Below are positions 1-45,008 of a stretch of DNA of 45,008 nucleotides, in pieces (position 1 is the first letter of the stretch; every line of letters begins with the position of its first letter). This stretch comes from a virus. The translations under genes were made by a program, and so were the position numbers. The notes under the pieces were generated by a model. It made no database searches, was not told the DNA's origin, and saw nothing but the letters and a program-made list of their open reading frames with translations. Location: positions 1 through 45,008 of the IMG/VR virus record IMGVR_UViG_3300045918_000199; one strand, given 5' to 3'.

Positions 1-127
1 GGCGGGGTTCACCCCCACGACGTTGAGAGGCCGAGCCTTCTGCGCCTCTTCAGGTGTCAGCCCCATGCGCGCGCCCAGGGCGACGTACATATTCGACACC
101 ATGATAGCATTTATCTCGTTCACGTCT
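1..127. repeat. Terminal duplication, copy 1 (identical to 44882-45008); circular-closure overlap
   Basis: Read directly: both copies run ggcggggttcaccccc...ttatctcgttcacgtct. The repeat lies inside an ORF that stays in frame across the junction. Confidence 0.95.
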
Positions 128-1821
128 TTCGTGAAGCGCCCGATCTTGGTGAACTGGTCAAGGTACACCTGCTTGACTTTGTCAGCGCTCTGTTGATGCG
201 CGACGCTATCGGCGGACTCAGAGATGACGCGCTTGGACTCTTGCGCCAGGAACTCTTCAGCCTTGCTGCTGGCCTCTTTGGCTTCAGCCTGGCTGTACTC
301 GTTCTCGCCGATGCGCGCGTGCTCCATGAGCTTTTGCTCAAGAGGTGTGCCGGCCACCTGGGACAGCAGCTCGCCGATGGGCACCGTGACCTCGTCGCCC
401 GGCAGCAGCTTGCCGCTCTCCAGCTGCGCCTTCACCGAGGGCAGCTGCGCCAGCTCTTCCTGGTTGAGCACTTCGCCTATCGTGCGCGCGTCAAAGCGCA
501 CCTCGGTGGGCGCGCCCTTGTCTTTGTTCTCCTCGGCGATCTGCTGCGTGACTTCAGCAAACGTGCTCGGGTTGTTCTTGCGCAGCGATGAATCGCTCGC
601 AGCTTTGAGCAGTGAGGTCAGCCGGTCGAACTCGGCGGTGGCTGCTTCCTGCTTCTGTTGCTCGCTGCCAAGCTGGTTGGTGATGCCTCCAACACCGTGC
701 ATCAGGGAGACATTACCCGCGGCGCCGACCAACACCGCGATGGCGGTTTGCGCAGCAGCTTCTGGCCGGGCCTTCAGGTAGTCCCCAAAAGTTTTACCCT
801 CGTGGTCAACAGCCCAGTCGTTCAGGTCTTGCAGTACCGTGGCGATCTGCTCGCCCTTGTTTTCTGCCCAAGCGTTTTTCAGGATAGAAGTGAACAGCGG
901 CGTGCCAGCCTTCATGTTGTGGACAAGCCCTGCCAACGGACCCATCTCTGTGCCCGCTTCAATCACCGCATCGCTCAGGCCGTGGCCCATCGCGGTCCAG
1001 TGACCAATGCCCTTCTCCGTGTCCTTCTGGTAGCTCTGCCCACCCGTGTTGGCGCTCATCGCGGTGAGGGCTGCCGCCTGCCCCCCGGGCAACACCGCGA
1101 GCAACATGGCGGGGGCGTTCTGGATGAAGGACTGCACGCCCCCCGACATGGCGCCGCCGAGCCAAGTGGCTGACTTGCCTTCAGCTGCTTTCTTCGCAGC
1201 GTTCTCGGAGTTCGCGATCTGCATGAACCCCTCAGACAAGCGGTGGAGTGGGTTCCCCCCAGGCAAGGAAGTGTTATCGAGGAAGTCAAGGGGGGTCCCG
1301 AGTGAGCGGGTCACCCCGCCAAACATCCCCGCGAAACCAGAGGAGGCGCCGTGGTAGGCGGCCTTGATGTCGCCGCCCAGCGTCGAGCTGGCGCCGGGGG
1401 CACCGACAAAATACTTCGCGCCGTTGACAAAGCCGTCGATGATTTGCGACATCGCGCTCGTGTCCTTGTGGACCTGCGCTACAAAATCAGGAGTGAGCAG
1501 CCGTTCCTTAATCGCGGGTGATGTCTGCGCCAGGTCGTTCAGCTCGCGGAATTTCACCATCGCTTCGACGGTGCCCTCTTGCGTCTTCACTGCTTCGAGG
1601 GGGATGCCTGTGACTTTGGAGAGATAGGCGTGATTGGCTGCGGTCAGCTCAGGTATCTTGATGCCTTGCGCAACGCTCGCGCGCAGGCGACCGCTGCCGC
1701 CTTCACGCTGCGCAAGCGCGGTGTCGAAGGGGTCGCTAGTCTCAGGGGCGGGGTTGCTCGTGCCAGGGCTGCCAGGAGACTGCGACTCACGAAGCGCTAG
1801 GAGGTCGTCAAAGCCGGCCAT
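1..1821 (-). CDS. Giant polyvalent internal virion/ejection protein, 5' part (continues across the circular junction into 44881..39866; joined product 2,278 aa)
   Basis: ATG at 1821-1819 with GAGG 6 nt upstream, 3 nt after the stop of 1825..3690. I translated the minus frame by hand and it is open to base 1. It is absent from the ORF track because it has no in-window stop. It joins codon-perfect (..GRFTKD|VNEINAIM..) to the 39866..45004 ORF. Confidence 0.85.
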   Translation of the reverse strand, partial: MAGFDDLLALRESQSPGSPGTSNPAPETSDPFDTALAQREGGSGRLRASVAQGIKIPELTAANHAYLSKVTGIPLEAVKTQEGTVEAMVKFRELNDLAQTSPAIKERLLTPDFVAQVHKDTSAMSQIIDGFVNGAKYFVGAPGASSTLGGDIKAAYHGASSGFAGMFGGVTRSLGTPLDFLDNTSLPGGNPLHRLSEGFMQIANSENAAKKAAEGKSATWLGGAMSGGVQSFIQNAPAMLLAVLPGGQAAALTAMSANTGGQSYQKDTEKGIGHWTAMGHGLSDAVIEAGTEMGPLAGLVHNMKAGTPLFTSILKNAWAENKGEQIATVLQDLNDWAVDHEGKTFGDYLKARPEAAAQTAIAVLVGAAGNVSLMHGVGGITNQLGSEQQKQEAATAEFDRLTSLLKAASDSSLRKNNPSTFAEVTQQIAEENKDKGAPTEVRFDARTIGEVLNQEELAQLPSVKAQLESGKLLPGDEVTVPIGELLSQVAGTPLEQKLMEHARIGENEYSQAEAKEASSKAEEFLAQESKRVISESADSVAHQQSADKVKQVYLDQFTKIGRFTKDVNEINAIMVSNMYVALGARMGLTPEEAQKARPLNVVGVNPA

Positions 1822-16163: not shown

Positions 16164-16193
16164 TTATTACGGATTGGGGTCAATCACTTGCAA
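16164..16193 (-). promoter_or_regulatory. Candidate sigma70-type promoter for the late arm
   Basis: Read on the minus strand: TTGCAA (16193-16188), 18-nt spacer, TAATAA (16169-16164), about 24 nt upstream of ATG 16140. The -35 hexamer is itself one copy of the repeat motif. Confidence 0.35.
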
Positions 16194-16317: not shown

Positions 16318-16328
16318 CGTTGTTTGCC

Positions 16329-16694
16329 TCATTTGTACACCCCTTGGCGGTTCACCACACGCCAGATCGTGGCGTGGCCAACGCCCATTTTCCGTGCAAT
16401 CCGCTCAGCGCTCCAGCCTTCAGCCTTCAGTTTTCGAACCTCAGCGACCTTGGCGTCGTCGAGACTGCGAGGCTTAGGTGACACCCTGTGGCGCCCACCG
16501 CGAAGCTCGCACGGCGCAGTGCGGTCCACGATGACCAAGGTGCCATCCACCAGGCTCGCCAGCTTCTTCTTGAGCCCAGGGTCGTCAGGATGTACGACGA
16601 TGGTGGGCTTGGGTCTTTCATTGGCGAAGAACACCTCGCCAGGCTTGTGTCTTGCCAGCGCCTGCTCCACGTCGGTTTTCAACAGAAAGCTCAT
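16329..16694 (-). CDS. HTH DNA-binding protein (resolvase-type C-terminal HTH)
   Basis: 121 aa, ATGA-coupled. The C-terminal AKVAEVRKLKAEGWSAERIARKMGVGHATIWRVV is a classic HTH_7-like segment. Confidence 0.7.
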   Translation of the reverse strand: MSFLLKTDVEQALARHKPGEVFFANERPKPTIVVHPDDPGLKKKLASLVDGTLVIVDRTAPCELRGGRHRVSPKPRSLDDAKVAEVRKLKAEGWSAERIARKMGVGHATIWRVVNRQGVYK

Positions 16695-17275: not shown

Positions 17276-17490
17276 TTTGGTTCTCCAAGTATGTGGGATT
17301 CGATTGCTCTGGCGAATCTATCTGGGGTAAATCCACCTTTGCCGTATTCAATATCGTATTGAATGTCAAAAATCTGTTCTGGAGTCATCCGCTGCACTGG
17401 CTTGAGACTGCGAAGGATTGTCATTGTTTCGGAGGGTTCGTTTTTAAGGCGCTCAACCTGCTCCTGAGTAATGATGTAAACGTCTTTCAT
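17272..17490 (-). CDS. Hypothetical small protein (AT-rich island)
   Basis: 72 aa from ATG 17490. ATGA-coupled at both ends. Lower GC than the genome. Confidence 0.6.
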   Translation of the reverse strand: MKDVYIITQEQVERLKNEPSETMTILRSLKPVQRMTPEQIFDIQYDIEYGKGGFTPDRFARAIESHILGEPK

Positions 17491-17711
17491 CGCGTCCTCC
17501 CTTCTATTGCTTGAACGGCTGCTGCGACAATAGGCCACATGATTCCCGTACTTTTCAACGCCACCAGCGCCTGCTCAAGCAGCTTGTCCTGTTCAGCAAC
17601 TCGGGCATGAAGTTCGTCTATCTCTGCTTGCAACTTAATTTCTTTGGCCGTGGTTGCGGTGCTTACAAGAGATAGCTCAAGATAAAGTTTGTCGATGGTT
17701 TCAGTGGTCAT
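17487..17711 (-). CDS. Hypothetical coiled-coil protein (AT-rich island)
   Basis: 74 aa from ATG 17711, preceded by AAGGATTGACC. The same 15-nt initiation region occurs again at 18004-18018. Confidence 0.6.
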   Translation of the reverse strand: MTTETIDKLYLELSLVSTATTAKEIKLQAEIDELHARVAEQDKLLEQALVALKSTGIMWPIVAAAVQAIEGRTR

Positions 17712-17722
17712 GGTCAATCCTT
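17708..17722 (-). repeat. 15-nt identical initiation region (AAGGATTGACCATGA), copy 1; copy 2 at 18004-18018
   Basis: tcatggtcaatcctt is read on the plus strand at both positions. Each copy spans the RBS and ATG of a small gene. Confidence 0.85.
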
Positions 17723-18007
17723 TGGGAGAACAACTAAACTAACGTCAGTCGTCCCTTGTGTTGGGCTGCCGCACTTAACTGAAAACACCGTGGCGAATGT
17801 TTCGCTGGTTTTCATGCGCTCAAGGTCATCCGGGTACATATACGCCACCGGCTCACCAATACGCTTGATGTAGTCCTGAATGGCTAGTTCGTAGAAGCGG
17901 ACAAAGAAAGCCAATTCCTCCCCTTCGGGGATGCCATCATCTTCTGAATATTCTGGATGCTCTTTAGCAGCAGCAACAGCCAGTTCAATCACTCTGTCTT
18001 TATTCAT
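17714..18007 (-). CDS. Hypothetical protein carrying the duplicated AYMY-DD...KTSE domain
   Basis: 97 aa from ATG 18007 (the track start at 18013 is TTG). The C-terminal VAYMYPDDLERMKTSETFATVFSVKCGSPTQGTTDV is about 50 % identical to the middle of 16691..17275. Confidence 0.6.
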   Translation of the reverse strand: MNKDRVIELAVAAAKEHPEYSEDDGIPEGEELAFFVRFYELAIQDYIKRIGEPVAYMYPDDLERMKTSETFATVFSVKCGSPTQGTTDVSLVVLPKD

Positions 18008-32941: not shown

Positions 32942-33133
32942 TCATGTTATTGAGCCTTTGAGTTTCCACTCGTCGCCCCGTTTTTCGTAGCATGAGAGTC
33001 CTTCTTGCTTTACTTCTACCTTTGCAATTTCACCGTATTTCGAGCAGTCGTCTGAAAGAACAGCTTTCGTAGTTCCAACAGACGCACCTAGAAATATGGC
33101 TGCGTAGAGAATCCAGAATAGGTGGTATTCCAT
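32942..33133 (-). CDS. Small secreted or membrane protein in the low-GC fibre cassette
   Basis: 63 aa. Hydrophobic N-terminus MEYHLFWILYAAIFLGASVG plus two Cys. It starts 2 nt after the fibre stop, and GC is about 40-45 % like the fibre tip. RBS is weak. Confidence 0.5.
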   Translation of the reverse strand: MEYHLFWILYAAIFLGASVGTTKAVLSDDCSKYGEIAKVEVKQEGLSCYEKRGDEWKLKGSIT

Positions 33134-33135
33134 GA

Positions 33136-34623
33136 TTAAGACGTAGCTCCTTTGTGCAGATTGAATTGAATCTCCACAGCCTCAGATAGCGAGCCAGCCG
33201 ATATGTTTTTTAATGCTATGGCTGCAACGCCTGCGGAAGTTACATCGAGATAAACTTGATATGTAAGATTCGTGGCAATACCACCCCGGATAGCCAAACT
33301 GAATGTGTCATTTAGTGTTAACAGTGAATTATTTAATGCAAATAACACAGTAGCACCCGCCGCCAAAGCAGCGTTATTCATCGTGATTCGTCCCGTAGGT
33401 GTATTCAGAGTAACCGCAGTAGATTTACTCGTAGCCTGAGTGACTGAGCCTCCTGCTCCTACGCCGTAGCCGAGGCCAGCGGGGGTGATTACTTGGAGTC
33501 CACCGATGCTTGGATAGTTAACCCGGCCTATCCCGTTGGAGCAGATAGTGAAATCGTGGTTTGAAAATGTTCCGCAAAGTACGCCGCTATTGTTTGTGTA
33601 GAAGCGGTAATCAAGGGTCTGTGTATTGTTATAAAAGCGCAACCCGCCGCCATTGGTAACATGGCCCTTATGTTCAATGAAGTTAAACCCCGCAGCGGCA
33701 CTAGGAATTACGTTTATCCCAACATTCCCACTGGCATCTTTGATAATCCCGCCATTACCAACATTAAGCGTATCGGTAGAGGCATCACCTAACGTGACAT
33801 TTCCTGTGGCAGAAAGAGTGGTAAACGCCCCAGTGCTAGGAGTCGTTGCCCCAATCGGAGTCCCATCAATAACGCCCTGAGGCACTGCTGCTCCGTACCG
33901 AACGACCACGTTGTTGGTAACCGCAGGAGGAGCGCCAGTCAGGAAGCTGATTGTCTTGGTCGAGGGCGTGTAAGAGAAGTTGACCCCAGCAGCCTGGACC
34001 ACCCCGCCAACAGACACCGCGCAGTTCGAGGCTACACCCGCGTCGTTCGTCAGGACAAAATCGGTTTGCGAACCCGTGCCACTAAAGAGCTGTGTCTGCC
34101 AATTCGCGTTCGCGACCGTCACGCCAAGCAACGCGGGCGAAAAGTTCTGCAGCTTGAGGCCGGTCGGGTCCCACCCGATGAGCGCCAGCGCGACAGCGCC
34201 AGGCAGTTCGTTAGTGCTGAGGGTGTCGGTCGGGGAGTTCGCAATCGCACGCGAGTTGCGCTCAGCGATCTGCTGCACCTGCATGAGAATACGGTCCAGC
34301 TCGCGCTCGAAAGCGACGGGGTCGAAGTTGCCCCCGCCAGGGATGGACAGCGTCTGGTCGTAGGGCAGCTGCCCGAGGAGCGCCAGCTTGTATCCGGTGG
34401 GCAGGGCCGTGGTCAGCGTGACGCTGCCGCCAGGTGAGGCCACCTGGTCCGCGTTCATCGTGACGGTGTAGCCCGAGGACAGGATTGTCTCGACGCCGTT
34501 GGTGTCCGCCTGCACGACTTGCACGTCAGTGGTGGCGAATATCTTGAAGCTGAAGGGATAAGGTACGTTGACCCCCGTCCCGGTGAACGGTCCAGCCTTA
34601 CGCGCGGTTGCAGGAACAGTCAT
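33136..34623 (-). CDS. Tail fibre protein (conserved N-terminal anchor, exchanged C-terminal tip)
   Basis: 495 aa with AGGAG 8 nt upstream. N-terminal KAGPFTGTGVNVPYPFSFKIF is typical of podoviral fibre anchors. The junction motif is PIGATTPSTGAFTTLSATG. GC drops 3' of about 33900. Confidence 0.75.
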   Translation of the reverse strand: MTVPATARKAGPFTGTGVNVPYPFSFKIFATTDVQVVQADTNGVETILSSGYTVTMNADQVASPGGSVTLTTALPTGYKLALLGQLPYDQTLSIPGGGNFDPVAFERELDRILMQVQQIAERNSRAIANSPTDTLSTNELPGAVALALIGWDPTGLKLQNFSPALLGVTVANANWQTQLFSGTGSQTDFVLTNDAGVASNCAVSVGGVVQAAGVNFSYTPSTKTISFLTGAPPAVTNNVVVRYGAAVPQGVIDGTPIGATTPSTGAFTTLSATGNVTLGDASTDTLNVGNGGIIKDASGNVGINVIPSAAAGFNFIEHKGHVTNGGGLRFYNNTQTLDYRFYTNNSGVLCGTFSNHDFTICSNGIGRVNYPSIGGLQVITPAGLGYGVGAGGSVTQATSKSTAVTLNTPTGRITMNNAALAAGATVLFALNNSLLTLNDTFSLAIRGGIATNLTYQVYLDVTSAGVAAIALKNISAGSLSEAVEIQFNLHKGATS

Positions 34624-34678: not shown

Positions 34679-37441
34679 TCAGCGTGGCTCTTGGTGGCCG
34701 AACAGCAATGCCATCGGGTTGTTGGTCTTGCCCTCTTTGAGAGCCTTGGCGCCTGTCACCGTGCGGTTGATCTGCGCGCTGGGTAGCCCGAAGACATCGC
34801 CCGACAGGTTGATGGCGGCCTTGCGGAAGCTGTCATCGAACTCGCCCTGGTTGGCCTGCTTGGCGAAGGCGAAGGTATCGGCCACCATGCGCACACCGGC
34901 CGGGCCTTGGTAGTCGCGGGGGTGGTCAGCCAGGCCAGCCATCGTGCGCCCAGCCTCGCCGAACTCACGCGACACAACCATCAGCCCCATCAGGTAGGTC
35001 AGCTGCTCGCCGGCCAGCTTGCGCGCGAGCTTCTTCGCGTCGTCATCGCCGCTGTCCCCAGGTGTCAGCGCATCGCGCAGCAGCGTGCCGAGTACCGCGG
35101 GCATCACCGCGAGCAGCATCACGTCGGCGGCCTTGCCCCCGGCCCCCTTGGTGCGTGCGCTGGAGTAGCTCAGGTTGGCGGCCGTGTTCATAAAAGCGTA
35201 GAAGGTGGTGAACAGCTTGGCCAGGGCGCCGCCGCGCTCGATGGCCGCCAGGTCCTTGGTCTGCCCCCCACCCTGGGAGTCGATCACCGCCTGGTCCGCC
35301 AAGGCGATGGCGCGCTCTTCGTCGTTGCCCTCGCTGATGGCCTTCTCGTAGCCGCCATGCCAGGTGGGCACGTCGACCGTGCGCTGCATGAACATCATCA
35401 GGGTGTAGGCGCTCTCGCGCGCTGCGGACAGCGGGCCGTGCTCGCCTTGCACCCTGTTGCGCAATTCGTTGAGGTCGCGGAACTGTGTGCGTGCGCGGTT
35501 TTCCATGAATTCGGACTTCTCTTTCGCTTCGCGCGTAGCCGCGACCGGGTTGGCCATGTAGATGCCCAGGCCCTTGCCAGCCCAGCCCGCGCCCAGCCGG
35601 CTGATGGACTGCGTGAAGCCCAGGGGCTGGATGGCAGCGGACATGAAGTTAAAGCCCAGGCCAGCCACGCTGACGTTCTGGCGCAGCTTGCCGATGGCGC
35701 TGTCTAGCGCCTCCTGTGAGCCGACATCGCCCTCGGCGATAGCATCGCGCCAGCTCTTGAACTGGCGCACCGCAGCGGGCCCGTAGTGGTCCCGCATCGC
35801 GCTGTCGACAGCGGTCGACTTGAGCAGGCGGTTGGTGTCGATGAGCCACTCGTGCCAGGCCAGGTCGTGGATGACATCGTTGACGCCGGTGTACAGACCG
35901 CTGAGGTCGTACAGCAGCGGGCGCCCGTTGACTTCCTCGACGCGGGCCTTGGTGAACGAGCGCCGCGTGGTGGCCACACCGTATGCGCCCTTGAGCTGGC
36001 GCTGCGCGCCCTCTGCGTCGGCGTGCTCTTCAGCGCGCACGCTCGCAGCGGTGTCGTACTTGACAGGGTAGTAGCCGCCAGGGATGCCGAGCATCTCGGT
36101 GATGGGCGAGCCCGCCTTAATCCACTCAGGCTCCTTGCCGTACACGCGCAGCTGCTTCTCGCCGATCTGCGGGCGGTAGCTCTCGAAGTGGTCCCACACC
36201 TGCTGCATGACTTTTTTGTCCGTGTCGTCCAGCGTCTCCATCACAGGCTTGAGCTGCTCCAGGGTCCAGCCCTCGCCGCCCAGCAGCCGCTGCAGGTTGG
36301 ACTCGTTGCCGGTGTTGAGCGCCATCGCCAGGACTTCCTGGCGCGTCATGCTGCGGTCGAGGCTGGGGTAGAAGGTGGCCTTGTGCAAGCCCTTCTTGGC
36401 CAGCCATGGGTGCATGATGTCGGTGAGTTTCTGCGTGGCCTCGGCGCGCTGCGTAGTTTCCCAGTCGCCCTTCTCGTTGGCGGCGCGGATGAAATACTCC
36501 CACACCTTACCACCATCCTTGCCGCCGTCCATGACGCGAGCCCAGGTGGCGGCCTTGATGTGCGCGCTGCCGAAGTTCTTGATGGCCTGCAGCCAGCGCC
36601 CCGTGCGCGTGGTGGGCGTGCGCGTGTTGGCCGTGCGATCACCAGCCAAGGTGTTGATGCTGTTGGCAATCTCGTCGCGCGCAGCAGCGAACTCGCGCTG
36701 GTCCTTCGCAGTGAGCAGCTTGTTCTTCAGGCGGCCCAGGTGCTCGATCTGCTTGATGGTGTCGAAGAGACCTTGGAACTCCTGGACCGTCATGTCCTTG
36801 TAGCTCGTGAGCTGCGCGTCTTCCTTGACGTAGTCGGGGATGTCGGGCTCCAGCCCCATCTCCTCCTGGCTCTTGAGCCAAGCAGCCAGCGAGGTGCGCT
36901 TGTCGAGTTCGCGCAGCGTGCGCTCTTTGAGGTCGACCCGCTCCAGCAGCTTGTCGATCTGGTCCTTGTACTCGGGCGGCAGCCGGTCGCTCTCTTCGAT
37001 TTTCTTCAGCGCCTTGACCTTCTTGTCGATGTCGGCCTGCGCGTCGAGCGTGGCCTTGGCCGCGTAGAACTGCAGCAGCTGGTCACGCTTGGCCTGGATG
37101 GCAGCGGCGGTATCGCCAGCCTTCATCGCATCAGCAGCGGCCTTGCCCGCGCGTGTCTCGGCTTGCGTGTGCTTGCCTGGCTTGAGGTCGCGCACCTTGC
37201 GCTGACCGATGAGGCGGTCGGCGAACTCTTTGGCTGCGCGAATCAGGATGTTCGGGTTGCCCTTGGACGCAGCCTTGCGCGACTTCACTGTGTCGATGTG
37301 CTTGTCCACCGCAGCAAGCGCAGCAGCCTGCGCGTCCATGCCCTGCGCGCGGAACTCAGCCGAGTGCTTGAGTATCGCCTCTTTGTCTTTGGCCTTGAGC
37401 GCCATGCCGGCTTTCGCCAGGCATCCAGTTAGTGTTCCCAT
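34679..37441 (-). CDS. Large (920 aa) virion-module protein of unknown function
   Basis: ATG 37441 shares 1 nt with the upstream stop. Mostly helical, with a hydrophobic stretch (ADVMLLAVMPAVLGTLL). No catalytic motif recognised. Confidence 0.65.
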   Translation of the reverse strand: MGTLTGCLAKAGMALKAKDKEAILKHSAEFRAQGMDAQAAALAAVDKHIDTVKSRKAASKGNPNILIRAAKEFADRLIGQRKVRDLKPGKHTQAETRAGKAAADAMKAGDTAAAIQAKRDQLLQFYAAKATLDAQADIDKKVKALKKIEESDRLPPEYKDQIDKLLERVDLKERTLRELDKRTSLAAWLKSQEEMGLEPDIPDYVKEDAQLTSYKDMTVQEFQGLFDTIKQIEHLGRLKNKLLTAKDQREFAAARDEIANSINTLAGDRTANTRTPTTRTGRWLQAIKNFGSAHIKAATWARVMDGGKDGGKVWEYFIRAANEKGDWETTQRAEATQKLTDIMHPWLAKKGLHKATFYPSLDRSMTRQEVLAMALNTGNESNLQRLLGGEGWTLEQLKPVMETLDDTDKKVMQQVWDHFESYRPQIGEKQLRVYGKEPEWIKAGSPITEMLGIPGGYYPVKYDTAASVRAEEHADAEGAQRQLKGAYGVATTRRSFTKARVEEVNGRPLLYDLSGLYTGVNDVIHDLAWHEWLIDTNRLLKSTAVDSAMRDHYGPAAVRQFKSWRDAIAEGDVGSQEALDSAIGKLRQNVSVAGLGFNFMSAAIQPLGFTQSISRLGAGWAGKGLGIYMANPVAATREAKEKSEFMENRARTQFRDLNELRNRVQGEHGPLSAARESAYTLMMFMQRTVDVPTWHGGYEKAISEGNDEERAIALADQAVIDSQGGGQTKDLAAIERGGALAKLFTTFYAFMNTAANLSYSSARTKGAGGKAADVMLLAVMPAVLGTLLRDALTPGDSGDDDAKKLARKLAGEQLTYLMGLMVVSREFGEAGRTMAGLADHPRDYQGPAGVRMVADTFAFAKQANQGEFDDSFRKAAINLSGDVFGLPSAQINRTVTGAKALKEGKTNNPMALLFGHQEPR

Positions 37442-38160
37442 CAGAGTACCTCACAAGCTATTAGTGTTGCGACCATCCGCAAAATCTCTTCGTGCTCCTG
37501 CTGTCTGCGCAGCCTGGTCAAGCCCCCCTGCGTGGCCGCGAGCCGGATGACTTCCACCTCCGCCCCCGACTGGAATACGTCAGGAGCGTACCCCTCGAAT
37601 GTTATCACCCCCGCGTCGGGGACCCCCTCGAAGGAGCCAGGGGTCGACTGCGCCACATCGGGCGCGTAGCCGGTGAAGGCTAAGGCGCCAGCGTCAGGGG
37701 ACAGTGCCTGTGGCTGCTCAATCGTCGGAGCGTACCCCGTGAAGCTGAGCGCGCCAGGGTCCGGCACTAAGGCCCGCGGTTGAAGGATGGAGGGCGCGTA
37801 GCCGGTGAAGGCTAAGGCGCCCGCGCCAGGGGAGAGGGCCTGGGGCTGGAGGATACTCGGGGCAAAACCCGTGAAGGCTATCGAACCAACACCAGGGGTG
37901 GCGGACTGTGTCTGAGATACCGTGGGCGCCAGCCCAGTAAAGACGAGGACCCCCGCCCCCGGGGTGAGCGAGATACTGCCCCCCGCGGGTTCGACCCAGG
38001 TGCTGAGCCCCAGCACCGCATCGACCGGCTGCGCTGTCGCGCTCGCTGGCGTGGCGAACTGCTGGTTGTTTATGCCATCGACAAGCGCCGATGTTCCCGG
38101 CGTGGCCGGTGTGGCGAACGCATCATTGGCGATGACGCCGTCAATGAGCGTGAAGGCCAC
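37441..38160 (-). CDS. Tandem 22-aa-repeat protein (FTGYAP repeats)
   Basis: 239 aa. GTG at 38160 with GGGAG upstream. Six repeats of about ..PGAGALAFTGYAPSILQPQALS... Confidence 0.7.
   Translation of the reverse strand: MAFTLIDGVIANDAFATPATPGTSALVDGINNQQFATPASATAQPVDAVLGLSTWVEPAGGSISLTPGAGVLVFTGLAPTVSQTQSATPGVGSIAFTGFAPSILQPQALSPGAGALAFTGYAPSILQPRALVPDPGALSFTGYAPTIEQPQALSPDAGALAFTGYAPDVAQSTPGSFEGVPDAGVITFEGYAPDVFQSGAEVEVIRLAATQGGLTRLRRQQEHEEILRMVATLIACEVL
37570..37977 (-). repeat. 66-nt tandem repeats (about 6 units) inside the 239-aa gene
   Basis: Phe codons recur every 22 residues (F74, F96, F118, F140, F162). The 29-nt string ggcgcgtagccggtgaaggctaaggcgcc recurs at 37661 and 37793, which is 2 x 66 nt apart. 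Confidence 0.85.
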
Positions 38161-38163
38161 TGA

Positions 38164-38364
38164 TTACTCCCCGGCAGCAGCCAGTATTGCAGCCTTCACT
38201 TCCGCAAAAAGCGTGTCCAGTCCAACCGGCAGGCAGGTCAGGCAGTAGTTACCGCCGCGCGCGGTGCCGACTGGCTCCAGCAGGGTGTTCTCTGTGTTCG
38301 AGCTAACGACCGCCTCTTCCGCGCCTTGAACAGCGCAGATGTCACAGATAAGATTTTCATCCAT
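38164..38364 (-). CDS. Small Zn-ribbon protein (CDIC...CLTC)
   Basis: 66 aa from ATG 38364 with AAGGAG 9 nt upstream. The ATG shares 1 nt with the upstream TAA. Confidence 0.6.
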   Translation of the reverse strand: MDENLICDICAVQGAEEAVVSSNTENTLLEPVGTARGGNYCLTCLPVGLDTLFAEVKAAILAAAGE

Positions 38365-39035
38365 TATGTGTACTCCTTCCAAGCTCCGTTAATCGTCAAC
38401 TTGCGGTTCGCTGTGGTAACTGCCAAGGCGTTCCAGACAACGATGCCCTCCCCTGCAGCCAGCACAATCTCGTCACCCTCTTCGTCGGGCGCCCAGTTAT
38501 CTTGCTGCGCTTGCCAGTGCCCGGCACCGCCTGTCACAAGGTCCATCGTCATGCCAACGTACTCAAACAACGTGGCGACCAGGGTGACAGTGAGGCCGGT
38601 CATTGCTGCGGAAGCCAGAAGCTGTGCCGCCGCGTCTGCCGTGGCGCGCTTGGCTGGGGTGATGGTCGCAGCGGATAGCGTGCCGGTGAAGCTGATGCGG
38701 CTAACCCGCAAGATAGGGGCAATTAAGTCCACCGCCAGCGTGGTGCTGAAATTGTGCTCAAGGAAAAGCCGTGAGAGTGCCACCTTCACCGTGGAGGCCA
38801 ACGGGTTTGTGAGGTACAACATCCCCGTAGTGGTGCCCGTCTGAACTGCGGTCGGGATAGCGGCAGCGGTCGCGTTGGCTTTATAGCGGCCAGTCTCACT
38901 GCGCTCGGTCGAGGGGATGAAGAAGTATTCCACCACCGTGTTCGCTCCGACCGTCGATTCCTTGGCACGGACCTTCTTGCCGGTGTTGCCCGAGTCGGTG
39001 GGCAGGATGATTACTTGGTCTGTCTTTGCTGCCAT
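38364..39035 (-). CDS. Beta-rich protein of unknown function (223 aa)
   Basis: Strong AAGGAG RBS. Thr/Ala/Val-rich composition suggests a beta-sandwich. No family recognised. Confidence 0.65.
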   Translation of the reverse strand: MAAKTDQVIILPTDSGNTGKKVRAKESTVGANTVVEYFFIPSTERSETGRYKANATAAAIPTAVQTGTTTGMLYLTNPLASTVKVALSRLFLEHNFSTTLAVDLIAPILRVSRISFTGTLSAATITPAKRATADAAAQLLASAAMTGLTVTLVATLFEYVGMTMDLVTGGAGHWQAQQDNWAPDEEGDEIVLAAGEGIVVWNALAVTTANRKLTINGAWKEYT

Positions 39036-39044
39036 GTTGGCTCC

Positions 39045-39518
39045 TTAAGTGGCGGAGATAAGTCCCGAGGCGTTCGGGGTTACCGTGAGGGTGTTCGGGG
39101 CCGTCGTGGCAGGGACGTTAGCTGGGGTCGCGTCTCCGAGGAAGTACCCCACGATGGGGTTGACTTTGCCGTTGAGCGTGCCGAGATAATAGATGAGGCC
39201 GTAGCGCCAGGCGGGGATGCCGGTGCCGTCAGCGGTCCAGACCGCAGCTGCTGAGGTGAACTTGACCACACCAGCGGCTTGCGCAAGAGTCACGCCGGTG
39301 AGAGCAATCCCTCCCGCGGCGTAGGCGGTTTGGCCGGCCGTAGCAATCTCGTTGGCGGAGGCGTCCGCGAAGACCTCATCGGTCGTGGGCGCGGGTGTCC
39401 AGGCCGACGTGATGAGCGCCAGCCGGTAGAGGGCGGAGCCGGTTTTCAGAAGGCCGGTTGCGCCTTCGAGAAAGTTCAGCTTCGTCTTTTGTGGAAAAGT
39501 AATTACGCCTGCAGCCAT
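39045..39518 (-). CDS. Beta-rich protein of unknown function (157 aa)
   Basis: GAGG RBS with ATG at 39518. No family recognised. Confidence 0.65.
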   Translation of the reverse strand: MAAGVITFPQKTKLNFLEGATGLLKTGSALYRLALITSAWTPAPTTDEVFADASANEIATAGQTAYAAGGIALTGVTLAQAAGVVKFTSAAAVWTADGTGIPAWRYGLIYYLGTLNGKVNPIVGYFLGDATPANVPATTAPNTLTVTPNASGLISAT

Positions 39519-39521
39519 GTG

Positions 39522-39869
39522 TTACCTCACAGTCTCAATTTCCATAATCTTCTTCGTGCCCTGGTAGTCGGTGTAGGTCACGCGCAACTTCTTGTCGGCC
39601 TGCTCCACCTCGGGCGGCATGACGATGGTGTTGTTCACTATCGGCGTCGGCACAGTGACCGACACCGCTGGCGATGTCACGTTGACCACCGGGGGCTCGT
39701 CCTTCTCCTCGGCCTCGTGGGCCTGGAGCACAGCGACCTGCTCTTTCAGACGCAGCACTTCCTCGCGCTGGCCTTGCAGGGCTTGCGCCAGGGAGGTGTT
39801 CTCTGCCTTCAGCGCATCCAGTGTGTGGAACACGTCGGCGAAGGCGGCATCTATTTCGAGCGGTGTCAT
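39522..39869 (-). CDS. Coiled-coil plus beta-tail protein (115 aa)
   Basis: ATG 39869 forms an ATGA overlap with the giant gene stop. GAAGGAG lies upstream. Confidence 0.6.
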   Translation of the reverse strand: MTPLEIDAAFADVFHTLDALKAENTSLAQALQGQREEVLRLKEQVAVLQAHEAEEKDEPPVVNVTSPAVSVTVPTPIVNNTIVMPPEVEQADKKLRVTYTDYQGTKKIMEIETVR

Positions 39870-42800
39870 GCTTTGATGCACTCCTTCAACTTCTCCAGCA
39901 CTTTAGTGTTGGGCTCGCTCTTTAAGCGCACGCCGTCTTCCAGCGCGCGCAGCTCGGTGGCCACGAAGTTGGCTCGCGCCTCGTTGTGGATGGCCTCGTC
40001 TGCGGCGCGCTCGATACCCTTGGGGGTGGTCAGGTCCCCGTAGCGCTCCAGCAGCCGCTGATCGGTCATGCCTTCGATGACGTGCTTGATGGGCTGCGCC
40101 TCGGCGATGGCGCGCAGCATCTGGTCAGGCGAGGTGTAGCCCAGCTGCTCGGACATGAACTGGATGTCGGCGTCGTTGCGCTCGCCCTTGAGCGAGTCGA
40201 GATAGTCCTTGGCCACGTACACCGGCTGCTGCTCCACCTCTGCGCGCACCTCGGCCTCGACCGCTTTGCGCTTGGCTTCGACATCCTTGGTCACCGCCTT
40301 AATGGCTTTGTTGCGCGCGCTGACCGACCACTTCAGGTCACGCAGGCTGCGCGCCTGCAGCTTCTCGATGGCGTCCTCAGTCGCGTTCTGCGCAGCGAGC
40401 TGGTACTGGGTCCACTCGTCGGGCTCCATGCCAGCCTCCTCGGCGGTGGTGAACAGCGGCGTCATCTTGCGCGCGGCCTCGGTCTCTTCAATCTGCGCTT
40501 CGGTCGCAAGCATGCGGTCGTAGACCCCGCGCACCTCATCGGTCAGGTCGCTGTTGTGCGCCTTCATAAAATCTTGCAGCGAGCGGTACACGTTCTTCAT
40601 CCAGCTGGAGAAGCGCTGGAAAATGCCGTGCATCTCTTTGCTCGGGGCGCGCCCCTCGAACAGATACAGCTCGTAGTGCTCGGCGAATTTCTCATGGAAC
40701 TGGCGCTTCTCTTCCAAGCTCATCGTGTTCCAGCTGGCCAGGTCGCTGACGCCAAACCACTTGAGCACCTTGGTCATGTCGGACGCCGCAGAGGTGTTGC
40801 CGTCCAGTGCCAGCTGCGTGAGCGCGTCGAGGTAGAAGTGCCCCATCTCGTGGTGGAACGTGGACAGGTCCGCGTTCTCCAGCAGGGAGATGGTCAGTGT
40901 CTTCGGGTTGTAGGTGCCGCGGCTGCCACCAGGCTGGGACAGGTCCGCGTCGGACAGCTTGGTGCCGTCCATCAGCAGGAAGAACTCAGGGTTAAAGGGG
41001 CTCCAGGCTTCCGCCATCGGGCCGTGGACTCCGCCCTCCCCGTCAGACAGCTGCGCAATGGCCTGCTGCTTGAGAGTGACGCTGAGCGCGTGGGCTTCCT
41101 CGGGGGTGAGCGGGCGGTCGAGCTTGGCCACCACGGTGGGCTCGGTGTTGGACTCGTGGACCTCGTGGGTCTCGACGGTGACGCCGATGGCCTTGAGCGC
41201 GTCCAGTACAGCAGCTGGTGTGAGCGGCGCCCCGCCCTCGACGTTGAGGCCGATGTTGACTAGGTTGCCATCGGTCGCTTGGTTTAGGACATCGCCGCCA
41301 GGTTTACCATCTCGGCGGAGGATTTCGAGGCGCTTGGCTGCACGGTTTTCGTGTCGGCCCTGAACAACTCCAACAAACGGCGCTGTTTCTCGGCCAGCGC
41401 GGGAGACTTCAGTTGCTGCTGCTCCTGAATCAAGGTCGCTGAGTCTATCGCCGAGTCCCGCGTCGCGGAGGATGGCTTCGTATTTTGCGTCATGGAATAG
41501 CCCCTTAAAATCTGGAGTCGAGCGAAGCATGTCATCCGTCAGCGACTCGTCCATCAGGATGTCAGTGGCGGACTTGTCAGCTGTCTGCGCTTCGTAAAGC
41601 GTTTTGGCCCAGGACCAGATGGTCTCCTGCACCTCAGCCGGCGTCCAGGTCTCGCCAGTTTTCTCAGTCAGTATTTTAGCAGCTTGCCGCACCTTTGCGT
41701 TCATGGCCAGGTAGCCCGGCCCCTTGCCCGCATCGGTGGAGTTGAGCGAGCCCTTGAACATCTTCTGGTCGACCAGGGCGAAGTTCGCCATCCAGGCGTC
41801 GTTGGTCACCTCGTTGACGTTGCCAAGCAGGTTGCGCATGAAGCTGTCAACCTTGGGGCCTGACAGTAAATCGGTGCCGGGGTTCTCCGTGGTCAGCGCG
41901 CGCACGCTGTTGTTTATCCAAGCGTCGAGCACGCTGTCGACACCGCCGCTACCTTCGACAGAGGCACCCATCACCTTGACGATTTCCTCGCGCGTCTGTG
42001 GGCGCCCGGCCGCCACCCAGTTCTTCCAGGTGTGCAGCGAGTTGAGCAGGTTAGTCTGCACAGGGTTCTGTGGGGACATCGCAGCGAGCAGTCCCACAAA
42101 GCGCGGCGCGTCGGGGCCGAACACCTGGCCGATAGCCTTGGCGCTTTCCTTGTACCAGCCCCGCTTAGCGCGGCCCGCCCACGCTACCGCAGCGAACTCA
42201 TCGGCGTGGGGCAAGCTGTCGAAGTAATCGACCAGGCGCCCAGCGGTAGCCTTGTTGAGCTTGCCGCGTTCTTTGTCGGTGAGGTGCTTCTCAATCTTCG
42301 CGAGCTTGGCGACCTTGTCGTCTTGCTTGTACACCGGGTCAGGCGTCTTGCTCTCGAAGGACTTGAACAGCTCCGACTTGTACATCGTCTGCGTCAGGTC
42401 GCCGTTGAACACACCGGCGCGCTCGAAGGCGTCGAGCACTGCGGGGTCCTTGGACAAAATCTCTTTCCAGCGCGAGAGTGGCGCTGAGCCTGCGGGCAGC
42501 GAACTGTCCGCGCGCAGTGCGTCAAGCACTACATCGCGGCCAAGCGCTACACGAGGCCCAGCATCCGGTACGCGCTGGGCTTCCTCAATCTTCGTCCGGG
42601 GGCCGAGCACCTCGGGCTTGACTGTCTGGTCGCCCAACAGGATGACCTGGCCAGGCTGCTCCCCGCTCATGCGGTCGAGGTAGCCCGAGTATCCGGCGTC
42701 GAGCACGCGGGTCTCGAAGTCGGTTTGGCTGCCCTTCTTCAAGCGCAGCGGGTCCGTGTTGGCGTCGTAGATGTTGGAGAGCTGCGCCTTGTGCGCGATG

Positions 42801-45008
42801 CCCCCCACGCCAGCCTCGGGGCGCACGCCGGTGCCCTTGTCGACGTAGAACGACAGGCGCTTGCCCAGTCGCTTGTCTGATGCGTTCTGGTAGGTCTCAC
42901 GGCCACTGCCCTTCAGGCCCGTGCCGTAGTGGTTGGTGTCCAGCAGCGGGCGCTCGGCCTTGCTGTAGTGGTAGGCCTCGACGGTCATGCCCTTGCTGAC
43001 CTTACTCAAGCTCGTGCCACCGCCCTTGCCGAAGTCGGCGCCAGCGCGCTCGTTGACCAGGTCGGTCGATGCGGTGAGCGCAGCGTCGAGCCAGCTCGGT
43101 TTGGCCTTGAGCCCGAGCAGATCAGTCTTCACCCAGTCGGCGAACTTCTGCAGCAGGGTCTTGCCCTTGTACTCGACAGAGGCCATGACCTGCTGCAGAC
43201 GGTTGTCGGTGAGCGCGCGCACGAAGAACTCGTCCTTATCGAGCAGCGCCTCCTGGATGGACAGCAGCGTCTCTTCATCGGTCACGCCCTTGCGCAGCTC
43301 TTCGGCCTGGGCCTGGAACTCTGAGTGCAGCGCGTTGAGCTGCTTGATGGCAGGCGACGTGGCCTTGGTGCTGTCGAGCTGGCCATACCTGGCAGCCACA
43401 CCCATGTGCAGCAGCTCGTGCAGGAAGGTGCCATAGGTGAGCCCCAGGCGCCCTTCCGGTACAGCTGCGCTCTTCGCTGTGTAGAGCGTGAGGGTGGGCG
43501 TGCCTGTCTTCATGCTGACGGCGCCGTGCGCGTCAGCCTTGGTGGTGTCGTCAACGGTTAGCGTGAAGTTGCTGGTAGGCAGGAAGTCCTTGACCTTCTG
43601 CGCCAGCGCCTTCATCTCCGCAGGCCCGCTCTTGATGATTTCATCGAGCGCCTTGGTGGCAGCTTCCAGCCCGTTCGTGTTGCCGCGCAGGATGCTCGCG
43701 ACGCTGGCGGGCATCTGCTTCTCGACCAGGTCGGAGAGCACGCGCGGGTCTGCCTTCGCTTCAGGCGTGACGGCGCCGAGCAGCGCGGCCAGCGCTTCGC
43801 GGCGGTTGAAGTTCACGCGCTGCTTGTTGATGCTCGGGTCGCGCGCATCGAAGTTGCCGTTGTTGCCGGTGGCGGATTTGATTTGGGTTGGCTGCGAAGG
43901 GGCGTATGTTTCGACGCCACCCTCTTTCACGATGATGCCATCGTAGCCAAGACGATGTACACCTTCTGCAAATTTTTGAGATGTCACGACACGGTAAACC
44001 AGATGGCCCCTGCCGTAATCATTTGACAGATTGTCGTCTAGGCCAAGTTTACGAAGCAGCGGCTTGATGGCGTCAACATTGTCATTCATGTCAACTTCAA
44101 TGCGGAGCGGGTTCTTTATAGACAAGTACACCGGCATCACGTTTGGGCCTGTGTAGTCTTTGTCGCTAATCGGGCGAGGGTAGCCCCCTGCCAACTCTGG
44201 ATTTGCAGAGAACCAACCAGCCCACTCGTAGCCGCCGAACTCTTCGATGTCTGCGTTTGTCCCGTGATAAACCACCAGCGGCTTGCCATCGGCATCGACG
44301 ACCTTGCTGTCACCGAACCACTCTTTGAAAGCCTGCGTCTCGGTGATTTTGCTTTGCTTGTCCTGCACCCCAGGATGCACAGCCTGGTGGTCGTCGAAGG
44401 CGACGACGTGGGTCTCTTGCTTGCCCAGGTGTTTGGCCGTGACGATGATGCCGTCGTAGCCCTGCGCGCGCAGCTCTTCGCGGTATGCGTGAGCTTCCTG
44501 CACGCTGTCAAAGCCGGGCATATCCTCGGCCTTGATGATCTTGGGGTTGCGGATGTCCAGGTGCAGCGACTCCACCTTGCCGTAGGTGGAGGCCTCGCCC
44601 TTACCGGTGGTGAACCATACGCCCAGCCCTGAGCTGGGGTTGCCGCTGGCTTTGCCTAAGCTGCCTGGCTTGAAGTGGTCTGACTTGAGGGCTTCGGCTG
44701 CGCCGCGGTGGACGAGGATTGGTTCGCCTTTTCGGCTGATGCGAGTAGCGCTAGACCACCCTTCTGCTGCGGGTTTTCCTGCAACAGTTGTGCCCAGCTT
44801 TTGTTCTGAGCCGACTCGTCCATCTCCAGCAGTTGTTCCAGGTCCATCTTGGTTTCCTTGTTGCAGCGTCTCTGCTGCGGTGGCGGGGTTCACCCCCACG
44901 ACGTTGAGAGGCCGAGCCTTCTGCGCCTCTTCAGGTGTCAGCCCCATGCGCGCGCCCAGGGCGACGTACATATTCGACACCATGATAGCATTTATCTCGT
45001 TCACGTCT
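39866..45008 (-). CDS. Giant polyvalent internal virion/ejection protein, 3' part (5' part is 1..1821 across the junction)
   Basis: Minus frame is open from the window end to TGA 39868-39866. The track M at 45004 is an internal GTG (Val). Motifs read in translation: ILVHRG/GVWFTT and VVYHGT/GWFSAN ART-like modules, HELLH (43406-43420) and HEMGH (40838-40852). Confidence 0.85.
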   Translation of the reverse strand, partial: DVNEINAIMVSNMYVALGARMGLTPEEAQKARPLNVVGVNPATAAETLQQGNQDGPGTTAGDGRVGSEQKLGTTVAGKPAAEGWSSATRISRKGEPILVHRGAAEALKSDHFKPGSLGKASGNPSSGLGVWFTTGKGEASTYGKVESLHLDIRNPKIIKAEDMPGFDSVQEAHAYREELRAQGYDGIIVTAKHLGKQETHVVAFDDHQAVHPGVQDKQSKITETQAFKEWFGDSKVVDADGKPLVVYHGTNADIEEFGGYEWAGWFSANPELAGGYPRPISDKDYTGPNVMPVYLSIKNPLRIEVDMNDNVDAIKPLLRKLGLDDNLSNDYGRGHLVYRVVTSQKFAEGVHRLGYDGIIVKEGGVETYAPSQPTQIKSATGNNGNFDARDPSINKQRVNFNRREALAALLGAVTPEAKADPRVLSDLVEKQMPASVASILRGNTNGLEAATKALDEIIKSGPAEMKALAQKVKDFLPTSNFTLTVDDTTKADAHGAVSMKTGTPTLTLYTAKSAAVPEGRLGLTYGTFLHELLHMGVAARYGQLDSTKATSPAIKQLNALHSEFQAQAEELRKGVTDEETLLSIQEALLDKDEFFVRALTDNRLQQVMASVEYKGKTLLQKFADWVKTDLLGLKAKPSWLDAALTASTDLVNERAGADFGKGGGTSLSKVSKGMTVEAYHYSKAERPLLDTNHYGTGLKGSGRETYQNASDKRLGKRLSFYVDKGTGVRPEAGVGGIAHKAQLSNIYDANTDPLRLKKGSQTDFETRVLDAGYSGYLDRMSGEQPGQVILLGDQTVKPEVLGPRTKIEEAQRVPDAGPRVALGRDVVLDALRADSSLPAGSAPLSRWKEILSKDPAVLDAFERAGVFNGDLTQTMYKSELFKSFESKTPDPVYKQDDKVAKLAKIEKHLTDKERGKLNKATAGRLVDYFDSLPHADEFAAVAWAGRAKRGWYKESAKAIGQVFGPDAPRFVGLLAAMSPQNPVQTNLLNSLHTWKNWVAAGRPQTREEIVKVMGASVEGSGGVDSVLDAWINNSVRALTTENPGTDLLSGPKVDSFMRNLLGNVNEVTNDAWMANFALVDQKMFKGSLNSTDAGKGPGYLAMNAKVRQAAKILTEKTGETWTPAEVQETIWSWAKTLYEAQTADKSATDILMDESLTDDMLRSTPDFKGLFHDAKYEAILRDAGLGDRLSDLDSGAAATEVSRAGRETAPFVGVVQGRHENRAAKRLEILRRDGKPGGDVLNQATDGNLVNIGLNVEGGAPLTPAAVLDALKAIGVTVETHEVHESNTEPTVVAKLDRPLTPEEAHALSVTLKQQAIAQLSDGEGGVHGPMAEAWSPFNPEFFLLMDGTKLSDADLSQPGGSRGTYNPKTLTISLLENADLSTFHHEMGHFYLDALTQLALDGNTSAASDMTKVLKWFGVSDLASWNTMSLEEKRQFHEKFAEHYELYLFEGRAPSKEMHGIFQRFSSWMKNVYRSLQDFMKAHNSDLTDEVRGVYDRMLATEAQIEETEAARKMTPLFTTAEEAGMEPDEWTQYQLAAQNATEDAIEKLQARSLRDLKWSVSARNKAIKAVTKDVEAKRKAVEAEVRAEVEQQPVYVAKDYLDSLKGERNDADIQFMSEQLGYTSPDQMLRAIAEAQPIKHVIEGMTDQRLLERYGDLTTPKGIERAADEAIHNEARANFVATELRALEDGVRLKSEPNTKVLEKLKECIKA
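44882..45008. repeat. Terminal duplication, copy 2 (identical to 1-127)
   Basis: Read directly. Confidence 0.95.

Follow-up and report, generated by a model that had tools for sequence, protein, structure and literature searches.

A split giant internal virion protein gene in a BPP-1-like podovirus, and the mobile module within it as a possible accessory fibre or adhesin

Previous studies have reported that Bbp10 of Bordetella phage BPP-1 is the epsilon15-group equivalent of the internal virion protein called IVP-D (gp16 of phage T7) (Hardies et al. 2016, PMC4819975). The closest described case of a divided structural gene is that of Pseudoalteromonas phage phiRIO-1, in which tubular tail protein B is split into gp44 and gp40 by gp41-gp43; the two halves migrate separately on gels, and the insert encodes proteins of ~180 and ~370 amino acids (aa), both of which are present in virions with a role that is unknown (PMC4819975). 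The report on phiRIO-1 called this split rare and drew no link to a widespread module (PMC4819975). In Agrobacterium phage 7-7-1, gp014 is a garland protein that binds to the distal parts of the tail fibres, and the proteins of the capsid fibres are unknown according to the cryo-electron microscopy study of this phage (PMC12796354). In the present study, we analyzed the IMG/VR virus record IMGVR_UViG_3300045918_000199 over its full length of 45,008 nucleotides (nt), which is called the window here, with attention to six consecutive minus-strand open reading frames (ORFs) within positions 34679-39869, which encode proteins of 115, 157, 223, 66, 239 and 920 aa (g115 to g920). The results showed that g920 is the C-terminal part of a Bbp10-like giant protein, and that the other five genes form an insertion inside the gene of that protein.

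The ends of the window share an exact overlap of 127 nt (positions 1-127 equal positions 44882-45008), and the window is therefore a complete circular genome of 44,881 bp, circularly assembled. The phage is a podovirus of the BPP-1/epsilon15 type. The giant ORF starts at window position 1821 and encodes 2,278 aa across the junction (the stop-to-stop ORF has 2,279 codons). Because it crosses the circular junction, ORF lists made from the linear window shorten it from 2,278 to 1,712 aa. The features of the region are as follows.

39866..45008, minus strand: giant internal virion protein, N-terminal fragment (giant-N), distal 1,712 codons, with ART-PolyVal and DUF7178; continues over the circular junction into window 128-1821
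1..1821, minus strand: first ~565 codons of the giant ORF, with the ATG at 1821; window 1-127 duplicates 44882-45008
39522..39869, minus strand: g115, first cassette gene; N-terminal coiled coil, 'PVVNV...' stretch, C-terminal beta part
39045..39518, minus strand: g157, small beta-rich protein of phrog_644 ('c3' type), in the slot directly upstream of g223
38364..39035, minus strand: g223, predicted jelly-roll protein and core of the mobile module, from its AlphaFold2 (AF2) model and its homologues
38164..38364, minus strand: g66, CxxC...CxxC zinc ribbon, present in some modules only; start codon in overlap with the stop codon of g223 (TAATG)
37441..38160, minus strand: g239, putative adaptor/repeat protein; N-terminal ~60-aa domain, six 22-aa repeats, C-terminal tail
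34679..37441, minus strand: g920, conserved C-terminal module of the giant IVP-D-like protein, as a separate ORF; matches phrog_9880 and Bbp10
37270..39923, minus strand: lineage-specific segment, approximate extent, derived from the junction alignment with four related loci (L094, L092, L083 and L098)
33136..34623, minus strand: tail fibre, 495 aa, N-terminal ~140 aa Bbp9-like; directly after the giant C-module, as in BPP-1

The g920 protein matched phrog_9880 with E = 7.5e-256 over profile positions 1301-2213 of 2231, and giant-N matched the same profile over positions 943-1195. Residues 60-920 of g920 were aligned with residues 1177-2052 of Bbp10, which are the C-terminal 876 of its 2,052 aa, at 59.6% identity, and residues 1359-1702 of the distal 1,712-codon part of the giant ORF were aligned with Bbp10 residues 771-1172 at 44% identity. 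In a tblastn search, g920 matched 47 GenBank phages, with the best matches (59.6% identity) in the Bordetella BPP-1 group. The last 230 residues of giant-N and the first 230 residues of g920, when concatenated, gave a single colinear alignment with unsplit homologues. The break lay within a short linker of variable sequence, flanked by '...NEARxRFxATxLxAL' and '...AAKEFAxxLxxRRKVRDLKPG', just upstream of a conserved C-terminal module of ~860 aa, and no coding sequence was lost. By these alignments, the 920-aa ORF encodes the conserved module at the C-terminus of a giant Bbp10/T7-gp16-like internal virion protein. Since g920 and giant-N are colinear with Bbp10, it is the giant gene itself that is split, by a five-gene insertion of ~2.6 kb, into a 2,278-aa N-fragment and a 920-aa C-fragment. 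The lineage-specific segment at 37270..39923 consisted of the five genes together with ~18 additional codons at the C-terminal end of giant-N and ~57 at the N-terminal end of g920, the latter corresponding to a lineage-specific extension of that protein. The giant protein can evidently work as two chains. We hold the structural and evolutionary part of this explanation, namely a split gene with a mobile-module insert, with high confidence.

These results change the picture given in an earlier note on this DNA. The note had counted six genes between the giant protein and the tail fibre, had taken the separation of the fibre from the largest core protein as a departure from the usual order, and had recognised none of the six products. 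As g920 is the C-terminal module of the giant protein, the insertion comprises five genes inside a split gene; the tail fibre does directly follow the giant C-module, and the oddity lies in the split of the core gene. The 920-aa protein, for its part, is anchored by its matches to Bbp10 and phrog_9880 and is fused to the N-terminal part in nearly all relatives.

The unsplit form is the common one. In phages BPP-1, ctEw122, Caulobacter SR18 and Pseudomonas AF, the giant gene is one ORF and is directly followed by tail fibre or lysis genes. Among 76 informative related IMG/VR loci, 74 had one continuous ORF (1,860-3,146 aa) over the junction, and two were split at the same site as the window. 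The window agrees with BPP-1 in the two colinear parts of the giant protein and in its head module, which consists of a Head-tail_con portal, a GP7 major capsid protein (MCP) and its own Bbp16 cement protein. It also agrees in gene order: a 621-aa ORF occupies the position of Bbp11 directly upstream of the giant gene, which is then followed by a Bbp9-like fibre; in terms of function, a lytic internal protein gene lies upstream of the giant gene and the tail fibre gene directly downstream. Unlike BPP-1, in which Bbp10 is a single ORF of 2,052 aa, the window has ORFs of 2,278 and 920 aa with five genes between them, and its N-terminal part carries other 'polyvalent' domains, namely DUF7178 and, in two stretches (E = 1.4e-31), the ADP-ribosyltransferase domain ART-PolyVal. 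Because Bbp10 aligns with giant-N only over Bbp10 residues 771-1172, these domains appear, by alignment, to be specific to the variable middle region of the lineage of the window phage.

The locus resembles phiRIO-1 in that a podovirus structural gene is split into two separate polypeptides by a small non-intron cassette. It differs in that the split gene of phiRIO-1 encodes the tail tube protein B, not IVP-D, and no sequence similarity was detected between phiRIO-1 gp41-43 and the cassette families. By analogy with the split tubular tail protein B of phiRIO-1, the two halves of the giant protein might be made separately and co-assemble in the core. As a separate observation, in two relatives, L099 (IMG/VR 3300031730_000059) and L086, the ORF with the g920-like part started unusually late and encoded 1,348 and 1,269 aa, respectively, and in L086 the giant-like similarity extended upstream beyond that ORF. 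Additional splits or frameshifts in the giant gene family might account for these late starts.

The gene calls of the earlier note were confirmed. The coordinates and sizes of the ORFs, the overlaps between them, the cysteines of the g66 zinc ribbon (C7, C10, C47 and C50, as CxxC...CxxC) and the ~6 copies of a 22-aa (66-nt) tandem repeat in g239 at 37583-37942 all agreed with what it had described. The six ORFs had gene-like values for GC content at third codon positions (GC3, 0.62-0.87), comparable to those of the portal and capsid genes. A GGAG/GAGG motif resembling a ribosome-binding site (RBS) preceded each of the six starts, and three junctions overlapped, at ATGA (giant/g115), TAATG (g223/g66) and TGATG (g239/g920). 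An excess of promoters or terminators was not found, since one promoter-like and eight terminator-like motifs in 8 kb did not exceed the numbers in shuffled sequence. These observations indicated that the block is co-transcribed and translationally coupled. A classical moron, that is, an autonomous transcription unit, was considered and rejected; the genes overlapped their neighbours, and a promoter and terminator of their own were not found. Flanking repeats that might mark a transposable unit were also sought, and only short matches at chance level were detected.

The split was shared by two IMG/VR contigs only (L079 and L080), in which the g920 proteins were 77% and 72% identical to that of the window, and the flanking giant fragments of the three genomes were 72-77% identical. 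Common terminal peptides were found at the end of the N-part ('VLEKLKEC...') and at the start of the C-part ('MGTLTGC.AKAG...'). The contents of the insert were less conserved. L080 carried a coiled-coil protein of 115 aa, two proteins of 124 and 309 aa, and a repeat protein of 242 aa, and L079 carried a coiled-coil protein of 120 aa, proteins of 124, 98 and 478 aa, and a 250-aa repeat protein. The first insert gene, which encodes the coiled-coil protein of ~115 aa, was homologous in all three genomes (29-35% identity), as were the C-terminal ~90 aa of the last insert gene (30-32%), and the middle genes differed. As the flanks are 72-77% identical while the middle of the insert differs, the insert is a site of fast gene exchange within a gene that is itself conserved. 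A similar pattern was observed outside the split clade. The 124-aa and 242-aa proteins of L080 were 74% and 39% identical to those of another contig, L032, which has g223 at the position of the 309-aa protein; with the flanks kept and the centre different, the central gene is therefore exchangeable.

The central genes of the window were next compared with sequence collections. A total of 525 homologues were found for g157 and 177 for g223, mostly with 47-90% identity, without names and without Pfam domains, and a full profile search of 1.84 billion representatives gave 442 relatives of g223. A tblastn search of the five small proteins, in concatenated form, against 50,697 GenBank phage genomes and a megablast search of the region against GenBank phages gave no match. 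No significant match was obtained for the five small proteins with Pfam, NCBIfam or PADLOC, and g115 gave only weak coiled-coil matches in Pfam. The scan of GTDB genomes yielded three matches only, all in metagenome-assembled genomes (MAGs), with the closest in a Hylemonella MAG, and prophage hosts were thus barely informative.

For the gene contexts, 61 g223 loci were retrieved, and the module was found in more than 50 uncultivated phages, with at least five portal lineages among them. The recurrent order on one strand was a small beta protein of the c2 or c3 type, g223, an optional zinc ribbon, and a repeat protein with a conserved N-terminal region of ~60 aa. The slot upstream of g223 (125-160 aa) was occupied by c2 proteins in 21 loci, by g157-like c3/c29 proteins in 12 and by c19 proteins in 3. 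A zinc ribbon of 66-74 aa (cluster c6) followed g223 in seven loci. Of the close loci, in which g223 was at least 60% identical, 31 had enough downstream sequence, and in all 31 the downstream protein of 230-650 aa shared the N-terminal ~60 aa of g239. The order g157-g223-g66-g239 of the window was the same as in L010/L050, L022, L035 and others. The nearest large upstream ORF was a portal gene in at least 25 of 38 loci, and six portal families were found next to the module, namely P22_portal, Phage_portal_2, Head-tail_con, Phage_portal, Portal_Mu and SPP1_portal. The usual site was between the portal gene and the scaffold/protease/MCP genes, and the module was also found before the terminase gene and in the distal tail regions of some phages. 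It occurred in lambda-like siphoviruses, one of which had the order portal-51-128-223-66(Zn)-354-protease/MCP, as well as in P22-, HK97- and Mu-portal phages. A BPP-1-like podovirus (L012) had the order portal-115-158-161-223-267-Gp10-like-Bbp19..., with a separate 1,923-aa gene in the position of the giant gene. Despite these different backbones, whose portals belong to different Pfam families, g223 was 65-82% identical. By these comparisons, the central genes of the window belong to a horizontally mobile module that usually sits right after portal genes.

A homologue of the giant protein or of g920 within 10 kb was found at none of the 61 g223 loci. Downstream of the portal gene of the window (10947-12674) come ORFs of 101 and 209 aa and then the MCP gene, with nothing inserted after the portal gene; the module lies inside the giant gene instead. 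Because no module locus was near a giant or g920 homologue and the portal site of the window is empty, the cassette neither travels with nor depends on the giant gene. In a further observation, L162 (135-292-116-257) and L009 (155-295-167-211), which are P22-like and lambdoid contigs, carried related cassettes of a small protein plus partner that open the late operon upstream of the terminase gene.

We propose that the cassette builds an accessory virion-attached fibre or adhesin and is not a helper of the giant protein. This assignment is tentative, with a likelihood that we place near but at most at an even chance. The starting point is the slot upstream of g223. The proteins of 124-136 aa that occupy it in L079, L080 and the 21 c2-bearing g223 loci belong to the gp014/gp012 family of phage 7-7-1 (E = 1e-14 to 6e-22). 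The garland protein of 7-7-1, gp014, is a member of this c2 family with a solved structure (PDB 9RKV chain A), and the family matches phrog_3758, annotated as 'virion structural protein'. In 7-7-1, a beta protein of ~140 aa (gp014) is encoded beside a fibre protein with a jelly-roll tip (gp015, long tail fibre) and decorates the tips; the window would resemble this pair in its small beta protein and its predicted jelly-roll protein. It differs in that g157 is from another family (phrog_644), and in that the predicted jelly-roll protein stands alone at 223 aa and is paired with a separate repeat/adaptor protein; in addition, 7-7-1 is a myovirus with the order fibre, then garland. Near these genes of 7-7-1 (L170, 51386-56739, gp014-gp009), the garland paralogue gp012 lies beside the structural genes gp011, gp010 and gp009, upstream of terminase and portal, and the block gp012-gp009 is a candidate for the capsid-fibre genes.

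The neighbours of g157 homologues in cultured phages are needle, tail or lectin-like genes. In Pam1, the homologue is located between the needle-head and needle genes, and in EBPR siphovirus 2 after a tail protein. In phiCbK, a phage known for its head filament, the homologue gp075 is directly upstream of the giant lectin-like gp076 (record 37058-45948) in the head-gene region, and gp075-gp076 may follow the same logic of a small protein plus a fibre. The neighbour of one g157 homologue gave a weak PHROG match to 'head decoration'. The model of g157 reached a predicted local distance difference test (pLDDT) score of 82.

For g223, the AF2 model, built from 71 homologues, was all-beta with a pLDDT of 88.6. 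Almost all of the top 50 Foldseek matches in PDB were single-jelly-roll capsid proteins or C1q/TNF proteins, with weak scores (best E = 6.8e-4, template modelling (TM) scores of 0.2-0.3), and matches in BFVD reached TM 0.5-0.6 to uncharacterised phage proteins and CRESS-virus capsids. A jelly-roll is tentatively predicted for g223. Searches of PDB sequences with the g223 and g157 profiles gave no match. Among the best 148 representatives, 111 were stand-alone proteins, 28 proteins of 261-961 aa carried the g223 core (profile positions ~40-223) at the extreme C-terminus, and nine giants of 1,206-3,782 aa (e.g. P0430, P0436, P0459 and P0488) carried it in 5-6 tandem copies. No PHROG family was found for P0430 and P0436, and the giants with tandem cores may be large adhesin-like proteins. 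One protein of 555 aa with a g223 core (L178) is the last large gene before an Amidase_2 endolysin gene and is followed by a small Zn-binding protein, an order that mirrors the g223-g66 pair. Furthermore, the 309-aa protein of L080, which stands there in the place of g223, has a C-domain similar to that of RcKemmy gp22; gp22 is the final tail gene, located after a gpJ-like tail protein and before the lysis genes. The same C-domain occurs in Curvibacter phage P26059A, a cultivable carrier of a related module, where gp0004-gp0007 directly follow the portal gene and include the c2-like gp0005.

The g239 protein looks chimeric from its sequence. Its N-terminal domain holds two or three 'DGxxxxxFATP'-like motifs, and the identity of its N-terminal 60 aa tracks that of g223 (r = 0.88, n = 41). 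The identity of its C-terminal 40 aa does not (r = 0.17); this tail, which is basic and then acidic/hydrophobic and is common to L079 and L080, resembles that of the split-clade relatives instead. The C-tails of g239-like proteins fell into classes related to the phage backbone, such as 'RRRRRM' in BPP-1-like contexts and a basic run and then 'EE..LLLL' in lambda-like and other contexts.

On the basis of the c2 garland protein, the RcKemmy gp22 C-domain, the C-terminal-tip architecture of g223, the neighbours of g157 and the correlation between the g239 N-domain and g223, a fibre or adhesin can be outlined. In this outline, g223 would be the distal jelly-roll head that binds the ligand, and g239 would act as adaptor or shaft, with its N-terminal ~60 aa holding g223 and its backbone-specific C-tail docking on the particle. 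By analogy, g157 might be an accessory of the fibre tip, in the role that c2 garland proteins have elsewhere, and g66 and g115 might assist assembly or anchoring. Head fibres of phi29, T4 Hoc and the head spikes of RcGTA are dispensable surface additions that are encoded in late operons and aid reversible adsorption. Compared by description only, their dispensability matches the patchy distribution of the module, and a relationship in sequence or fold did not emerge. The suggestion of the earlier note that the block encodes extra tail decorations fits the role proposed here for the five genes, and does not extend to g920, the C-module of the giant protein. As a whole, the best explanation is a split giant gene with a mobile module that encodes an accessory fibre or adhesin, and we regard it as evenly poised between right and wrong. 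A stronger version, in which g157/g223/(g66)/g239 would be a self-contained plug-in adhesin that moves as a unit between unrelated tailed phages and docks only through a short, exchangeable C-terminal peptide of the adaptor, with enough mobility to enter an essential core-protein gene and split it, is unlikely.

Several points weigh against a fibre or adhesin. Membership of the window's cassette proteins in the virion is predicted from sequence. The post-portal position, here among core genes, is equally suited to portal- or core-associated internal proteins, and some g239-like proteins have poly-Arg C-tails with which they could bind DNA within the capsid. The correlation between the N-domain and g223 could result from physical linkage of adjacent DNA and not from protein contact. 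The jelly-roll assignment of g223 is based on weak Foldseek scores in PDB. Of two BFVD matches, the one in RSB2 (ORF28) is encoded outside the listed structural module, upstream of ORF29, the primase/helicase gene, and the one in LIMEzero, a 191-aa protein, has its size-matched ORF at the genome end; both phages are without a size-matched ORF among the listed structural genes, and this generic fold match is therefore uninformative on function. Ten long proteins with a g223-like C-domain had no tail-fibre match in PHROG and no family. Finally, the garland analogy of g157 is one of shared gene position only: the g157 model had no Foldseek match in PDB below E = 0.8, 9RKV included, and its comparison with the garland/c2 family by hhalign gave a probability of 0.2, with no detectable homology.

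Some of these points lead to the strongest rival, in which the five proteins would be portal- or core-associated cargo inside the capsid, perhaps ejected with the giant protein. Internal cores assemble on the portal; in the window the module lies inside the gene of an internal virion protein, and at least 25 of 38 other loci have it directly behind the portal gene. The Arg-rich 'RRRRRM' tails in BPP-1-like contexts and the tight translational coupling with core genes are consistent with such cargo. However, the proteins are beta-rich or jelly-roll in type, and the ejection and core proteins known to us are mostly helical. The positional equivalent of g157, c2, is an external tail-fibre garland in 7-7-1, the g223 core is the C-terminal tip domain of long proteins, one of them just before lysis genes, and further sites of the module are distal tail regions and the stretch before the terminase gene. 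We therefore consider internal cargo quite improbable.

The same site between portal and scaffold/protease/MCP genes would suit a capsid decoration, cement or head-fibre set on the HK97-fold shell, comparable to the jelly-roll cement protein Bbp16. Jelly-roll cement proteins occur in this phage group, including the Bbp16 of the window, and this possibility also gains from the 'head decoration' match beside a g157 homologue and from the position of the c2 paralogue gp012 of 7-7-1 beside unassigned virion proteins. Nevertheless, a g223 protein that is 65-82% identical across different portal families would be hard to fit to divergent capsid lattices, and the sole solved relative of a module component is tail-associated. 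The proposal overlaps with an accessory fibre and differs from it in the attachment site only. Its probability is low in our estimation.

We give still less weight to a non-structural late accessory set, active in superinfection exclusion, anti-defence or host manipulation and tolerated at module boundaries. The cassette is highly mobile, self-contained and dispensable in most relatives, its sites vary (after the portal, before the terminase, at the tail end and inside the giant gene), and its families have no Pfam family or assigned function, all of which would agree with such a set. On the other hand, it is always in a structural operon and translationally coupled, it has no promoter or terminator of its own, unlike classical morons, the c2 relatives are genuine virion components, and PADLOC gave no match for the five small proteins. 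This makes a non-structural set very unlikely.

Helper roles for the giant polyvalent protein, as its chaperones or loading factors, or a system like Dar of phage P1, had been suggested in the earlier note. The only points in favour of such helpers are the position inside the giant gene and the coupling to it, and like the Dar system the locus links several small genes to a giant virion-delivered protein. The synteny comparison proposed in the note, on whether the block travels with the giant gene, gave a negative answer, since 74 of 76 related giant genes were without the insert. Conversely, none of the 61 module loci, siphoviruses included, has a homologue of the giant protein or of g920 within 10 kb, and occurrence of the block in phages that lack a giant polyvalent protein is what the note itself had named as a refutation. 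In the BPP-1-like L012 the module follows the portal gene, and the giant position holds a separate 1,923-aa gene. It also differs from Dar in that its proteins are beta-rich and its relatives are external fibre components, and scans of Pfam, PHROG and PADLOC detected no Dar family. Specific helpers of the giant protein are accordingly scarcely credible.

The weakest alternative, in which the giant protein would be made as a single chain and the interruption would stem from an intron, an intein or an error of assembly, agrees with the perfect colinearity of both halves with unsplit homologues but is effectively excluded, because an Rfam scan of the whole window gave no intron match, Pfam and NCBIfam gave no reverse transcriptase or homing endonuclease family, the five inserted ORFs have RBSs, gene-like GC3 and hundreds of independent homologues, stop codons and frame changes in the insert exclude an intein, and the identical split is present in two independent contigs from other samples (L079 and L080). 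A split intein at the break was also considered and rejected: no Cys/Ser-His-Asn boundary motifs were seen by reading, and the terminal extensions look helical.

With regard to the neighbouring genes, the GC content fell sharply to 48.6% at 32942-34000, which covers the C-terminal half of the tail fibre and a 63-aa ORF, compared with ~62% genome-wide. The GC3 was 0.60 for the 495-aa fibre and 0.42 for the adjoining 63-aa ORF. This fibre end and the small ORF look like a recently acquired receptor-binding end and its partner gene. A second patch of low GC content (50-57%) was found at 16000-18000, with the packaging/structural genes on one side and the gene of the primase (PriCT_2 + AAA_25) on the other.

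Split podoviral structural genes (phiRIO-1; F116 compared with H66) and accessory fibres are already known. What is new is a clean split of a giant injection protein linked to a widespread unnamed module with a strong positional preference for portal genes. The annotation of the region is corrected accordingly, as the largest stretch of the genome thought to lack an anchor is mostly the tail end of a giant injection protein, and a break is tolerated where its variable 'polyvalent' part meets the conserved C-terminal module. The analysis also exposed an uncharacterised module with no Pfam family, hundreds of metagenomic members and a near-fixed post-portal position in unrelated lineages, and tied one type of its components to a solved garland protein of a fibre tip. 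An exchangeable adsorption device, if that is what the module encodes, would be relevant to the prediction of host range and to phage engineering, and it would offer candidates for the unassigned head or neck fibres of phages such as 7-7-1 and phiCbK. Should the plug-in adhesin prove true, it would mean a widespread, previously unrecognised swapping of adsorption devices that is independent of tail fibres.

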